A DNA stretch of 64,000 nucleotides. Origin: Chloroflexota bacterium. Its GTDB lineage: Bacteria; Chloroflexota; UBA11872; VXNJ01. The notes below the pieces were generated by a model. It did not search any database. It saw only the letters and a list, made by a program, of their open reading frames with translations, and was not told the origin of the DNA. Each line of letters begins with the position of its first letter. Position 1 is the stretch's first letter. Shown here in pieces: positions 9,806-14,364 of the stretch. The translations under genes were made by a program, and so were the position numbers. Location: NCBI GenBank assembly GCA_965261345.1, contig OZ253449.1:128001-192000 (forward strand), read 5' to 3'.

Positions 9806-11011
9806 TGTTCGGGCGAGTACTTTCGCTTCGCCATTGCTGTCCCTTTTCGTTGGAACCAGATTATTCACATTCCCTCTGGTACCAATGAGGCAATTGTCTT
9901 GATTGTCAATTCCGGCAGAGGTGGGGTCAGAGGGGTCCAGGAGAAAGGGGAGGATAGATCCAGCGCCCCGACCGCGGTTCATAGTGACCGCAGCCCGATC
10001 GACAGGCGATAACCGGATGCGTAATCGCCGCAATAGCCCGATCCCGGGCATGGCTTCGCCAGGGACCTTGCCCGCAAGAGCGATCGGACCTGCCCGGCGT
10101 TCAGCCCGAGGCGGACTCCTCGCGCCAATACTCGCCGTTCCTCAGCATCGCGTTCAGGATCACCAGCAGCTTTCTCATGCAAGCCGTCAGCGCCACTTTT
10201 TTGGGTTTCCCACTCTCCACCAACCGGTCGTAAAAAGCCTTGATCACCGGATTGTGGCGCGAGGCTGACAGGGCCGCCATGTAAAGCGCCGACCTGACCC
10301 TTGAGCGTCCGCCCCAGGTCGTTCGCCGGCCACTATACGCGCCGCTGTCGCGGTTCAGGGGCGCAACCCCTACCAGGGCTGCGATCTGCTTCTCGTCCAC
10401 CGTTCCAAGCTCGGGCAGGTAGGCGATCGCGGTTGCCGCCAGCTGCGGGCCGGCGCCGGGCACCGAGGTCAGCAGCGCGCTGCGGGTGGCAAGATCGGAG
10501 TCGGCCTTAATCAGCTTGCCGATATCGCGGTCAAGGGTGGCGATGCGGCGCCCCAGTCCGGCAATGGCGCGCCTGATGTTGGCACGTACACGCGGAACTA
10601 CCCGCCTCCCCAGCCGGTTTTTCTCGGCGGTGAGATGGTCCATGAGCTGGCCGCGGCGGGCAACCAGTCCCGCCAGTTCGCGCTCGGCGGGCGACTTGCG
10701 CTCCCTTGCCGGGGGCTTGACCGCCTCGGCGTAGCGGGCGATCACCCGGGCATCGATCCGATCCGTTTTGGCCAGGATCCCAAGCGCCCGGGCAAAGTCG
10801 CGCATCTGGCGCGGATTTACCACCGCCACCTTATAGCCGGCGTCCCGGAGAGCGTCGGCCAGCTGCTCCTCGTAGCCGCCAGTGGCCTCTGCGACCACCA
10901 GCGCCACCAGATAGTTCTCGAGGCGCTTGATCAACGCCCCGAACCCGGCCGCAGAGTTGGGCAGGGTAAAGACCTCGCCCTGGGGCCCGAGGGCGATATC
11001 GACGGTGTTTT

Positions 11012-11323
11012 TGGAAGTTACCTCCGACTGCACGCGGTAAGCATGCCGAAGAAGCCGCGGTCGTCATCACCCACCCATTCCATCCCCGCCGGGGCAGGCG
11101 CTACCGGCTGATCCGGTCCGGGCATTGCTGGGGCGCCGAACGGGTCATCTGCGACATCGGCGGCAACCGCCAGCAGAGCTTCCCGCTCGAGTGGACCGAC
11201 CAGGCCCCGCCCGACCCCTTCCAGGTCATCGCCGCCGGCCGCTCGGCGTTTCGGCCCGATGACCTGAACGCGCTCGCAAACCTTATCGAGGGCATATCGG
11301 AGGACAAAGGAGATGTAAAGTGA
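11012..11323 (+). CDS. DUF5372-like (Y4bD/Y4pK-like) protein lacking an in-situ start codon
   Basis: [13 protein letters not shown]...W...[23 protein letters not shown]; absent from the ORF track; start supplied by 14288 upon circularisation (inference). Confidence 0.75.
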
Positions 11324-11516
11324 TTAGAGCAACACACGTAAAAGGATATGCGCACATGACCCAACTGTGGAAGTCGTTGTGGATCGCCTGGATCAGGATA
11401 TATCATCCCTTATACAGGCTGGCGTCGATCGTCAATTGGCAGGCGTCGCCGGTTGTCGGATCGGGCTATGGTTGCGTAACAGCTTTATCATTACTCTTTC
11501 AGGAAGGACGATGCCG

Positions 11517-11969
11517 ATGTCTGCCGCCAATGATCCCAAGATCGAGTTCCTGCGAAGCTGCGGGGCGCTCAATCCCCATCCCGAGCGGGTGGGCGACGAA
11601 CTCTTCGCCGGGCATGACTTCTTCGACCCGCGCGATCTTTGCCAGGTGCGTTACGAGATGCTGCGGCGGGTGTTTGTCGATGAACGTAGGGTGTCTGACA
11701 GCGCCCGTCTCTACGGTTACTCCCGCCCGACCTGGTACAACGTCGCCCGGGTCTACCGGGTCGGCGGCCTGGCCGGACTCCTATCCGAGCGCCCCGGTCC
11801 GCGTAAAGCGCGCAAGCTGGTCCCCGAGATCGTTTTGTTCATTGAGCAGGTGCGACGGGAGCACCCCGGTCTGGGGGCGGCGGCGCTGGCGCGGTTGGTC
11901 AACGAGCATTTCGGCGTATCGGTGCACCGCTGCAGCATCGAGCGGGCGTTGCGGCGCGCAAAAAATTAA
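11517..11969 (+). CDS. Helix-turn-helix protein of the recombinase element
   Basis: RBS aggaagga at 11501; FFDPRDL.QVRYEMLRRV...GYSRPTWY...GLAGLL...PGPR. Confidence 0.85.
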   Translation: MSAANDPKIEFLRSCGALNPHPERVGDELFAGHDFFDPRDLCQVRYEMLRRVFVDERRVSDSARLYGYSRPTWYNVARVYRVGGLAGLLSERPGPRKARKLVPEIVLFIEQVRREHPGLGAAALARLVNEHFGVSVHRCSIERALRRAKN

Positions 11970-12406
11970 CCATCCCGGACCAGAGTCCGGGTACAGCACC
12001 GCAGCCGCCGGTCGCCGCCTACGAGAAACTGCGCCGCCAGGCGCTCGCTCCCGACGGGGGCTCGGACTGGCGCAGCCTGGCGATCATCCGCCGACGAGGG
12101 ATCCCGGCCTGGCTGGCCCGGCGTCCCGCATCCACGGCCCCGGGGCCATCGTCGCCGCACCGGGCCGGATCGGCCGAACTGCTCGACATCCTGCTGGGAT
12201 TGGCGCTGGGATCGGAGTCCGGCGGTGATCGATCAGATGCAACGCAGGGTGACCGCGCAGCATCTTGCCCGCCGGGCCTTCCTGTACGTGCGGCAGTCAA
12301 CCCTGCGGCAGGTGATGGAGAACCGGGAGAGCACCCGCCGCCAGTACGATCTGCGCCGCCGGGCGCGTTCGCTGGGCTGGGCGCCGGAGCAGATCTGCGT
12401 CATTGA
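11960..12406 (+). CDS. -1-frame extension of the HTH gene (Y4bB-like small helical domain)
   Basis: Open -1 frame from the slippery site: AYEKLRRQAL...LAIIRRRGIPAWL...ELLDILLGLAL; no start codon before the helical segment. Confidence 0.6.
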   Translation, partial: KKLTIPDQSPGTAPQPPVAAYEKLRRQALAPDGGSDWRSLAIIRRRGIPAWLARRPASTAPGPSSPHRAGSAELLDILLGLALGSESGGDRSDATQGDRAASCPPGLPVRAAVNPAAGDGEPGEHPPPVRSAPPGAFAGLGAGADLRH

Positions 12407-14298
12407 CTCGGACCTGGGGCGGTCGGGAGCCGACTCGGACCGCAAGGGTTTCCAGCGTCTGGTCAGCGAGGTGTCGCTGGGGCGGGCCGGGATCGTGCTG
12501 GGCCTGGAGGTCTCGCGCCTGGCGCGCAACAACGCCGACTGGCATCGCCTGCTGGAGCTGTGCGCGCAGTCAGACACATTGATCCTGGACGAGGATGGGA
12601 TCTACAGCCCGGCCCAGTACAACGACCGCCTGCTGCTGGGCCTTAAAGGCACCATGTCGGAGGCCGAGCTGCACGTGATGAAGGCCCGCCTGCTGGGCGG
12701 AGTGCGGGCCAAGGCCGAGCGCGGCGAGCTGCGCTGCCGGCTGCCGGTGGGCTTTGTCTACGATCCGCTGGATAGGGTCGCGCTCGATCCCGACGCCCAG
12801 GTACGCGACACCCTAAAGACGTTCTTTACCGTCTACGAGCGCACCGGTTCGGCGCGGGCGGTGGTCGTCTACTTCAACACTCGCTCGCTCTCCTTCCCGA
12901 CGCGCCCCTACCACGGGCCGCGCAAGGACGAACTCTTCTGGGACCAGCTCACCCACGCGCGCGCCATCCTGGTCCTGTCACAACCCGCGCTACGCCGGAG
13001 CGTTCGCCTGGGGGCGCTATCGCACCCGGCGCGTCAACGGACGCGACCGCAGGGTACGGACGCCCCGGGACGAGTGGAGGGTGCTGATCACCGATCACCA
13101 CCCCGGTTACATCACCTGGGAGCGGTTCGAGCGCAACCAGGAGACGCTCTCGCGGTCGGCCCGTTCCTGGAGGCGCGAGGGCCAGGGCGGTCCGCCGCGC
13201 GAGGGATCGGCGCTCCTGCAGGGCATTGCCGTCTGCGGGAAATGCGGCAAACGCATGACGACCCACTATGACAATCGCGGCCGGCAACTCAGGCCCCGCT
13301 ATGTCTGTCGCCGCGAGGGCGTCGACAAGGGGCTGCCGGTCTGCCAGTCGGTTCCCGGGACGGCGATCGATGCGGCGGTCGCGGAGCTGGTGCTCGAACT
13401 TATGAATCCGCAGATGCTCGAGTTGGCGCTCTCGGCCCAGGACGAGCTGCGGCGGCGCATTCACGAGGCCGATGCATTGCGGGCCAAGGCGGTGCAGCGG
13501 CTGGAGGAGGAGGTCGACCTGGCGGGGCGACGCCATCGGATGGCCGATCCGTCCAACCGCCTGGTAGTCGATGTGCTCGAGGCCGAGTGGAACGCCTGCC
13601 TGCTGCGCCTGCAGGACGCGTCAGACGAGCAGGCCAGGCAGCGCGAGCAGGACCGGGCCGAGCTGAGCGAGCGCCAGCGCAAGCGGATCAAGGCCCTGGC
13701 GACCGACTTCCCGGCGCTCTGGAGCGACCCGGCAACCCCGGCAAAGCAGCGCAAGCGCATGCTTGGCCACCTGATCGCCGATGTGACCATCGTCAAGAGT
13801 GGGGAGATCGGCGTGGGGGTGCGCCTGCGCGGCGGCGCTGACCGCCGGTTTAAGCTTCCCCTGCCGCTGTCGGCAGCCGATCGGTACCGCACCGACCCGG
13901 GCGTGGTTGCCCTGCTCGATCAACTGCTGGCGGATCACTCCTATGCCGAGATCGCCGCGATCCTTAACCAGCGCGGCGTCCGCACCGGGCGTGGCAACGC
14001 CTTCAACGCCAGGAAGGTCTACGTGCTGCGGCGCGATCACGATCTCAAGACCAGGTATGAGCGACGGCGCGATCTGGGTCTGCTCACCGGCCGCGAGGTG
14101 GCGGCGCTCCTGGGTATAGCACCGACTATGGTCAACGGCCTGCGGCGGAGTGGACGCCTGCAGGGCGCAAACACCGGTGGCAACCGCTGGCTTTACGAGA
14201 GGCCCGCCAACCTGGGCGAACTACGATCAAGCATCCGCCGACCGGTCAGATCACCAGCCGACGGTTGCGAGTCGAACGAGGTGCAGTATGCAAGGTGA
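12225..14298 (+). pseudogene. Large serine recombinase (resolvase, recombinase and Zn-ribbon domains) with one extra base at ~12977
   Basis: YVRQST, DLGRSG, EVSRLARN, (H)NPRYAG, CGKCG..M, YVC; removing one T restores VLHNPRYAG, so this may be a sequencing error. Confidence 0.9.
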
Positions 14299-14364
14299 TC
14301 CTTGGCAACGTCGACGCCCACATACACGTCCTCGCGCATGCAAAACTCCCTATAGTTACTCTCA

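Follow-up and report, generated by a model that had tools for sequence, protein, structure and literature searches.

Element E1 and its divided DUF5372 gene

The stretch analysed here (hereafter the window) comprises 64,000 nucleotides of contig OZ253449.1 from a Chloroflexota bacterium (positions 128,001 to 192,000, forward strand). Between window positions 11011 and 14305 lies element E1, a 3291-bp insert in a minus-strand IS110-family transposase gene. It carries a large serine recombinase (LSR) and, divided between its two ends, a small gene of the DUF5372 family (a domain of unknown function). Judged from sequence comparison, this gene would be whole, and expressible, only when the ends of the element are joined; we give this reading a probability of about 0.8. 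That the split-gene architecture is real and has been selected seems to us slightly surer still.

The frame at 11012-11323 matches the Pfam family DUF5372 (PF17342) with 74.8 bits against a cut-off of 25, the whole profile (1-78 of 78) aligning to residues 19-96. As the initial annotation had observed for the part inside the element, this frame is startless: from stop to stop (10970-11323, 117 codons) it holds no in-frame ATG, GTG or TTG. At the opposite end, within the last codons of the recombinase gene (stop TGA 14296-14298), GAGG (14278-14281) is followed after six bases by ATG (14288-14290) and then by CAA GGT GAT CCT TGG, again as first reported. When the two ends were joined at their shared TTGG, the 108-amino-acid protein that had been proposed was recovered as a single open frame of 108 codons running from this ATG into the THPFHP motif. 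The attachment site of the free form, attP, is located inside the 5' coding region of E1's own DUF5372 gene. The right-end arm provides the ribosome-binding site (RBS) and the opening 14 bases of the open reading frame (ORF), start codon included, in a stretch that overlaps the tail of the recombinase gene. Codons 5/6 of the junction ORF contain the crossover dinucleotide, and the remainder of the gene starts at the left end. The recombinase ORF stops at 14298, short of the crossover, and the gene that is partitioned is DUF5372. E1 contains four pieces, all on the plus strand: the DUF5372 body, a helix-turn-helix (HTH) gene, a -1-frame stretch and the recombinase. Features of E1 and its target are as follows (window coordinates; E2 is a sister element in the same genome).

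10101-11010, minus strand: 3' part of the IS110-family transposase gene, the target (Pfam DEDD_Tnp_IS110 and Transposase_20; uninterrupted genomic copies)
11011-11012, no strand: left copy of the crossover dinucleotide TT, within TTGG 11011-11014 (empty-site comparison; family geometry TT-N14-ACTGCAC; locus L029)
11013-11036, plus strand: P' arm of attP, with outer motif ACTGCAC at 11027-11033, inside codons 2-9 of the DUF5372 leader (weight matrix)
11012-11323, plus strand: DUF5372 body, 103 codons and stop, startless when integrated (Pfam PF17342; start-codon scan)
11324-11510, plus strand: spacer; relatives have a promoter and two TGTAAAG-type repeats here, and the -10 part is missing in E1 (alignment)
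11511-11969, plus strand: HTH gene (Pfam HTH_32, HTH_29, HTH_28), with an A6 run at 11960-11965 just before the stop
11966-12229, plus strand: -1-frame stretch, conserved with E2 (comparison with E2)
12225-14298, plus strand: large serine recombinase, starting at GTG 12225 or ATG 12237, with a frameshift at 12978 (Pfam Resolvase, Recombinase, Zn_ribbon_recom)
14278-14301, plus strand: P arm of attP, with GAGG 14278-14281, GTGCAGT 14281-14287, ATG 14288-14290, then CAA GGT GAT CC (sequence; family right-end geometry)
14302-14303, no strand: right copy of the crossover dinucleotide TT, within TTGG 14302-14305 (empty-site comparison; 3291-base skip)
14304-14339, minus strand: 5' part of the IS110 transposase gene (rebuilt empty site)

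The bounds of E1, TTGG at 11011-11014 and TTGG at 14302-14305, were set by comparing the occupied site with uninterrupted IS110 copies. The genome is a single contig of 2.39 Mb, and all seven IS110 copies read in it cross the site uninterrupted (six at 96-100% identity and one at 92%). The empty and occupied sites differ by the 3291-bp insert alone, indicating a conservative 2-bp crossover; a target duplication is absent. Contigs from sequencing runs, aligned with the window, show a 3291-base skip from 11010 to 14302, which is explained by the other IS110 copies. The ends first proposed for the element were confirmed by these seven copies together with the skip. Because a single join is in frame by chance one time in three, the weight of the in-frame join rests on homologues.

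Geometry of the ends in homologues

A profile search with one genome per species, in which 496 of 599 candidate stretches encode relatives, provided 80 loci for study from Acidobacteriota, Actinomycetota, Chloroflexota, Gemmatimonadota, Planctomycetota, Pseudomonadota, Spirochaetota and other phyla. Ends were first fixed independently of the reading frame, by means of copies of the same element with different flanks (L052/57/77, L071/79, L067/69/91, L059/89 and L028/29), empty sites (E1 and E2) and contigs exactly one element long (L031, L037 and L054). These revealed a common arrangement. The right end reads GAGGTGCAGT, start codon, 11 bases and the crossover dinucleotide; the left end reads the same dinucleotide, 14 bases and ACTGCAC, the mirror of GTGCAGT. 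Overall, attP takes the form GTGCAGT-N14-TT-N14-ACTGCAC with arms that are imperfect inverted repeats. The dinucleotide is mostly TT, but L029 has CT at both ends, L054 has TA and E2 has CG. As a side observation, L071 and L079 are the same element in one metagenome-assembled genome (MAG), 4565 bp and 3310 bp long, the longer one carrying an internal insertion of about 1.25 kb.

Left ends called by inverted-repeat score alone were too noisy, and this approach was replaced by weight matrices trained on 13 empirically fixed ends, with the left end scanned at all offsets from 35 to 90 in the 69 non-training loci. The distance from the left arm to the T codon of THPFHP was 58 nt in 53 of them and 55 nt in 14. 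The two exceptions are L066, with 59 nt, and L072, whose contig is cut, so 67 of 68 evaluable loci are in register. Rhizobial plasmid copies in pNGR234a and in pT136b (Rhizobium sp. T136), read by eye, have 61-nt spacers with GTG-ATG at the start, and are in frame. Between these spacer types (55, 58 and 61 nt) the difference is always a whole number of codons; one of the 68 evaluable loci departs from this rule.

Right ends were found in 49 loci, giving 43 non-redundant joins. A start codon in frame and without an intervening stop was obtained in 41 of these 43. ATG serves as the junction start in 31 joins and GTG in 9. Three joins lack both at the usual place, and there the next codon is TTG, TTG and ATG, a start in each case. 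A frame that is random across homologues, named in the initial annotation as the outcome that would speak against its proposal, is not what we found. For E2, a join at the repeated CCGCGG, which is out of frame, was rejected, as this hexamer holds two CG registers; an uninterrupted transposase homologue needs 6 nt between the E2 flanks, which places the crossover at CG, with 14+2+14 geometry and in frame. Taken on these comparisons, the split-gene layout appears to be under selection across many phyla.

Translation of the leader and the position of the promoter

If the leader upstream of the domain is translated from the junction start, it should stay open. The 54 nt before THPFHP contain an in-frame stop in none of 70 non-redundant loci, compared with 10/70 and 54/70 for the other two frames; in the flank just outside the element, in-frame stops occur in 30 of 63. 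By codon position, entropies are 1.44, 1.39 and 1.51 bits in the leader and 0.82, 0.80 and 1.36 bits in the DUF5372 domain, and the leader is not conserved as a protein. Its residues 1-12 are disordered in a structure model. We read the leader as a passenger peptide, presumably present because the ORF must cross the attP arm. The case for its translation would rest on its openness, the whole-codon length changes and the start codon.

A different account is that integrated copies do translate DUF5372, beginning at an internal or non-canonical codon (a GTG before THPFHP, for example), and that the in-frame join is a by-product of attachment-site geometry, the right-end GAGG-ATG being kept only as a recombinase-binding arm and recombinase C-terminus. 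The codon just before THPFHP is indeed GTG in 21 of 70 loci, and gene callers and RefSeq use such starts; GTGCAGT, being mirrored in the other arm, is an attachment-site motif, and the lack of protein conservation in the leader would also fit. However, GTC occupies the same codon in 19 of 70 loci, nearly as many, and in 43 of the 70, including E1 and E2, the 18 codons that precede the domain are free of ATG, GTG and TTG. The ATG and GAGG of the right arm, unlike GTGCAGT, have no mirror in the left arm. The junction start codon persists while the last residues of the recombinase vary (Y, C, S), and it is shifted by one codon in all three joins that lack it at the usual place. Nor would a non-coding spacer stay stop-free in 70 of 70 loci and whole-codon in 67 of 68. 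Adding the position of the body upstream of the promoter (below), we regard translation from an internal start as the general explanation to be very improbable.

An alignment of the spacer after the DUF5372 stop revealed a conserved TTGACA-N16/17-CATAAT pointing to the HTH and recombinase genes. Such a promoter-like site is present in 40 of 75 non-redundant loci; a control region within the recombinase gene gave 5. The integrated DUF5372 body lies upstream of this site, the sole conserved promoter of the element. Because the promoter is downstream of DUF5372, integrated copies lack a promoter, an RBS and a start for this gene. In the joined form, the same internal promoter would already account for transcription across the junction. 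Between the DUF5372 stop and the conserved promoter there are also two direct repeats, TGTAAAG...AATT.CGCC (window 11312-11350 and relatives), which may be operator sites, perhaps for the HTH protein.

A start placed at the other end of the element would explain why DUF5372 starts are annotated inconsistently, as the true start would be 3.3 kb distant. Called lengths range from 71 to 205 amino acids, and RefSeq uses internal GTG starts. Plasmids pNGR234a (L110), pT136b (L111) and pRmeGR4b (L112) carry the element, and RefSeq calls DUF5372 there from internal starts. A 99%-identical DUF5372 from another assembly (P0001) was called with seven extra N-terminal residues. Because these derive from a different flank, the E1-type element also sits at another site elsewhere; sequencing runs X3 and X8 likewise show other left flanks.

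Joined forms in natural DNA

We searched for the contiguous junction (right arm, crossover, left arm). A first, strict pattern, which matched 12 of the 49 in-silico joins, gave no match in metagenome contigs. A relaxed pattern, matching 27 of 49, gave 11; nine are unrelated AT-rich chance matches and two (L107 and L108) are real. L108 (2689 nt) holds, in order, a recombinase 51% identical to that of E2 over residues 8-658, the junction, a complete DUF5372 ORF of 103 codons with ATG, and the beginning of a following gene. The shorter L107 (1068 nt) holds a recombinase C-terminus, the junction and a complete DUF5372 ORF of 102 codons. Both junction ORFs match PF17342 (L107, 91.5 bits, E 3e-26; L108, 69.3 bits, E 3e-19). 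The pattern was absent from E1's own genome and the 80 genome loci, and gave no match in viral contigs, five carrier genomes or three complete plasmid records.

With two metagenome contigs joined, and the gene intact only there, one may ask whether the joined form is the lasting normal state, as an episome or tandem array, with integrated copies as dead ends and DUF5372 as an ordinary, non-regulatory gene of a circular genome, one that happens to include attP in the manner of archaeal elements of the SSV type. The absence of the junction from all the genomic, plasmid and viral sequences just listed speaks against this, as does the abundance of integrated copies (496 of 599 candidates being relatives, and 100 plasmid records). 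No replication function was found among the four genes, and identical integrated copies of an element at different sites indicate repeated integration. We consider a lasting joined state improbable, only a little less so than an internal start.

Several observations weigh against the view that DUF5372 is whole and expressible only in the joined form. Two of the 43 joins fail: in L066 (a MAG labelled MFD) one extra base puts the join 1 nt out of frame, and L080, whose right end is altered, has a TAA. In 19 loci with at least 3.3 kb downstream, the right end was not found within 5.9 kb; reading by eye recovered one in L056 and in L096, and other insertions can be seen to interrupt several of the 19 (a further 13 loci have contigs too short to yield a join). 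An attachment-site geometry fixed by common ancestry would by itself preserve the frame. The leader entropies are without a codon pattern. In 27 of 70 loci an in-frame GTG or TTG stands no more than 18 codons from the domain, and 18 of 71 have a chance in-frame start in the flank; as far as start codons tell, integrated copies of these kinds might be translated in some cases. The initial annotation had named translation from an internal start as the other outcome that would count against it; E1, E2 and the other loci without a start offer no codon for it, and it may occur in some of these 27. The two joined contigs may come from circles or from tandem copies, the pattern search of E1's own genome and the 80 loci found no junction, and in the Logan contigs of four runs we found no go-back joint, contigs being unable to show rare forms.

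E1 itself is an imperfect witness as well. All three recombinase domains (Resolvase, Recombinase and zinc ribbon) were matched, spread over two overlapping ORFs, into which the gene is split by one extra base at 12978. This base is absent in contigs of run X3, where the gene is intact, and kept in runs X1, X8 and X9. Because these three runs, from three studies, keep the extra base, the broken version is real and widespread and is no assembly slip. A scan of the E1 spacer for the promoter conserved in relatives found none. With its recombinase frameshifted and its promoter missing, E1 is probably a fossil of the split-gene design and itself inactive. The proposal with which this work began, that integration beheads the gene and excision restores it, is nevertheless supported by the 41 of 43 joins, the open leader, the position of the promoter and the two natural joined contigs.

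Predicted contact of DUF5372 with the recombinase

In an alignment of 30 sequences, DUF5372 has 18 invariant columns, all of which are present in E1, and the motifs HPFHP, PPDPF and GR..F are invariant; the E2 protein matches PF17342 with 67.9 bits. The family forms 835 clusters at 50% identity in a representative library. The model of the protein (predicted local confidence, pLDDT, of 79) consists of the disordered residues 1-12 followed by four strands and two helices, a small beta-barrel with two helices. A fold search of the PDB with this model gave only weak SH3/KOW-like barrels, none at E<=0.001, and a sequence search of the PDB gave no match (best E 0.22). Neither NCBIfam, PHROGs nor ESM Atlas contained a match. 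A search for longer, fused forms of DUF5372 scored none, which is weak evidence.

We then predicted the complex of DUF5372 with the C-terminal 405 residues of the E1 recombinase in three runs, together with three controls. The score was 0.77 in each run, and the best of the three controls scored 0.00; of the reference pairs, 58 of 80 solved complexes attain the mark applied, as do 2 of 110 mismatched pairs, counts that are approximate here because the alignment was our own. The runs agree in at least 85% of contacts, with a partner pLDDT of at least 77. On the recombinase, the predicted interface comprises the zinc knuckle (51, 53-56), the helices flanking the coiled-coil arm (107-127 and 193-236) and the following hairpin, while the arm itself (128-192) is untouched. 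On DUF5372 it comprises the HPFHP, DPF and GRSAFR motifs, and 13 of the 18 invariant residues belong to the 32-residue interface, against an expectation of 5.6 (p 9e-5). As the PDB contains neither a sequence nor a fold match, the prediction is unlikely to be the memory of a solved complex. On the strength of this model we lean, by a modest margin, towards DUF5372 binding the zinc-ribbon domain and coiled-coil base of the recombinase. The model covers only the C-terminal 405 residues of a frameshifted gene, which tells against leaning on it heavily.

Known recombination directionality factors (RDFs), which are unrelated in sequence, are described in the cited part of PMC11722253 as binding the second DNA-binding domain (DBD2) and the coiled-coil base. 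A role for DUF5372 in directionality, one of those suggested by the initial annotation, would fit its predicted placement. The same placement cuts the other way too: a binder at the RDF site could equally be a classical RDF that blocks integration.

A possible switch set by the state of the DNA

We infer from the sequence that DUF5372 is made only after excision, and our reading of the predicted contact is that it would be a recombinase cofactor made only by the joined form. The cycle we envisage is as follows. In the integrated state the DUF5372 body, startless and upstream of the promoter, would be silent. Excision to a circle, or a tandem arrangement, would create the unit HTH - recombinase - junction - DUF5372, with GAGG-N6-ATG at the junction and DUF5372 as the last gene. 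The protein would then serve the circle stage, by favouring or locking integration or by neutralising an excision factor. Integration helped by DUF5372 would break its gene again and so reset the switch. A pro-integration role is the one that we tentatively favour, because every integrated copy is without the protein and the elements are evidently mobile, yet it stays short of an even chance. The fuller version, a directionality factor of reversed logic in which the integrated state, having no cofactor, permits excision and the cofactor of the circle drives or locks integration, is a shade more doubtful.

Its main rival is that DUF5372 is a classical RDF, stimulating attL x attR and blocking attP x attB, so that synthesis from the circle alone amounts to positive feedback: a rare first excision would supply a factor that drives out sibling copies and holds off re-integration, for instance until a new replicon or cell is reached. 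The predicted interface (zinc ribbon and both helices of the coiled-coil base) is the known RDF site, so far as the cited part of PMC11722253 describes it, and the elements are often multi-copy, with three E2 copies in this genome and three and six matching places on the two NGR234 plasmids. However, an RDF has to be present in the integrated state for attL x attR, and there the gene has no start and its body lies upstream of the promoter; a factor that no integrated copy makes could not initiate excision. Nor would a circle persist that neither replicates nor permits its own integration, and the element has no replication gene. By analogy, moreover, known junction-activated expression drives the integration step (ICEclc Pcirc; Tn4451). 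A classical RDF with positive feedback therefore strikes us as unlikely, if clearly better placed than either a lasting joined state or an internal start.

Should the reversed-logic cycle hold, it would be an autonomous, self-resetting two-state switch without an outside regulator, set by the state of the DNA. Its bearers would be a widespread and hitherto undescribed group of serine-recombinase elements, hyperparasites of insertion sequences at the catalytic [K/N]GxxE codons of transposase genes. Were DUF5372 to set direction, a state-coupled LSR cofactor would be of interest for recombinase switches and recorders. Testable material exists in culturable, non-pathogenic carriers of intact copies, rhizobial plasmids among them; examples are Sinorhizobium fredii NGR234, Paraburkholderia nodosa DSM 21604, Caballeronia humi LMG 22934 and Kibdelosporangium philippinense ATCC 49844.

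Comparison with known systems

The mycobacteriophage BPs, with its relatives, offers one parallel: integration reportedly removes the 3' end of the repressor gene and yields a stable active protein, and the integrase is said to be a tyrosine enzyme. In both BPs and E1, the integrated and free forms encode different products. Integration of E1 removes 5' start signals and should silence the gene, unlike in BPs. That attP lies in a regulatory gene in this integration-dependent immunity system is stated in the cited part of PMC4557955.

A closer precedent is the 'suicidal' tyrosine integrases of the SSV type (SSV1, pTN3 and pT26-2), in which attP is in a gene of the element and integration splits that gene; the cited part of a review calls these recombinases exclusive to archaea (PMC8371274). 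E1 resembles them in having attP in its own gene, intact only in the circular form. In the SSV type the split gene is the tyrosine integrase itself, cut mid-gene, whereas the E1 family is bacterial, keeps its serine recombinase whole and splits an accessory gene, the cut separating the RBS, the start and five codons from the body. The attP-in-own-gene principle, described in that review as archaeal only, would appear here in bacteria, in an accessory gene and at the level of translation initiation.

Circle-junction promoters of insertion sequences are known, and in Tn4451/Tn4453 the expression of TnpX is reportedly tied to the circular state. ICEclc Pcirc likewise expresses a recombination function from the excised circular state, according to the cited part of PMC13023037. 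The E1 family would share with these systems a recombination function tied to the excised state. In them, a promoter is joined or brought to a complete recombinase gene; in the E1 family it is the coding sequence that is split, at the point where translation starts, while the promoter is a conserved one within the element and the protein being gated is something other than the recombinase. DUF5372 is, like the RDFs phiC31 gp3 and SPbeta RDF, a small protein, predicted at the zinc ribbon and coiled-coil base (cited parts of PMC11722253 and PMC5814800). Unlike classical RDFs, it would not be expressible when integrated, the stage that needs an RDF, and it has no match to solved proteins. LSRs of the TndX/TnpX clade are multi-targeting enzymes of small elements with a circle, many sites and a TT core, as given in the cited part of PMC10083194. 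The E1 family is similar in its small elements, many sites and TT core, would share the circle, and differs from that clade in lacking DUF4368 in the E1 recombinase, in targeting one conserved transposase codon context rather than AT-rich pseudo-sites, and in having two or three accessory genes.

Our literature searches, with supplements outside their scope, found no paper mentioning DUF5372 and no description of a start codon or ORF split across the attP or junction of a serine recombinase, in agreement with the statement of the initial annotation that it knew of no earlier account. Nor did they find anything on LSRs that target transposase genes in this manner or on an RDF expressed only from a circle. 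DUF5372 gains a concrete context as a likely recombinase partner whose synthesis would be wired to the recombination state.

Targets, sister element E2 and distribution

Rebuilt empty sites restore long ORFs on the strand opposite to the element, and 31 of 42 give a junction peptide [K/N][G/A]xxE on that strand. The family target is the K/N codon of the [K/N]GxxE catalytic motif in rve-type transposase genes, the crossover dinucleotide being the first two bases of this codon; this register allowed the predicted ends to be checked at single-base precision. Pfam rve matched 7 of 10 flank ORF pieces, up to about 2 residues before the junction, and three of the matches are above the cut-off. The E1 target differs in being an IS110 gene. 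By these sequence criteria, the family appears to live inside transposase genes, in antisense orientation, as mobile elements that parasitise insertion sequences. A compact four-gene family is defined in this way, with nucleotide-exact ends and a target in catalytic-motif codons of rve, IS110 and DDE transposase genes.

E2, 71% identical to E1, has three copies in the same genome, all on the same contig:

about 1054948-1058240, plus strand: E2 copy
about 37537-40830, plus strand: E2 copy
about 33100-36394, minus strand: E2 copy

Two of the copies are head to head within 5 kb. The E2 recombinase is intact (688 amino acids, with Resolvase, Recombinase and zinc ribbon), and E2 sits in DDE transposase genes at YCP-R-GEMEN with crossover CG. 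Elsewhere on the contig (2361019-2361078), next to an IS110 relative of 73% identity, 53 nt remain of an E1-like left end, truncated by an IS3-like rve ORF.

Rhizobial plasmids often carry the element (100 plasmid records, of which Sinorhizobium accounts for 58 and Rhizobium for 13; 62 are conjugative). In Sinorhizobium meliloti GR4 the copy is rearranged with a second, inverted copy.

The HTH gene, the -1-frame stretch and a neighbouring gene

The HTH protein (window 11511-11969; L002:1429-1923) is similar to the N-terminal DNA-binding part of IS481, IS630 and IS3 transposases, with NCBIfam matches that are below the cut-off (E about 4e-13). It resembles the same kind of transposase whose genes the family targets.

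In 22 of 33 elements with the gene end found, the HTH gene ends just after a run of 6-9 A residues (window 11955-11969 in E1). Past this end a shifted frame is open up to the recombinase start, and E1 and E2 share a conserved -1 frame; together this suggests a frameshift or transcriptional slippage. However, it is common for the two shifted frames both to be open. A Pfam search of the E1 and E2 pieces found no family, and the pNGR234a equivalent is annotated by RefSeq as a separate coding sequence of 88 amino acids. The -1-frame stretch may be reached by frameshift or slippage, or may be a separate small gene.

A 475-amino-acid ORF on the minus strand at window 7941-9368, some 0.7 kb away from the IS110 copy, contains an RVT_1 reverse-transcriptase domain (E 2e-36); by its YADD context it resembles the reverse transcriptase of a group II intron.

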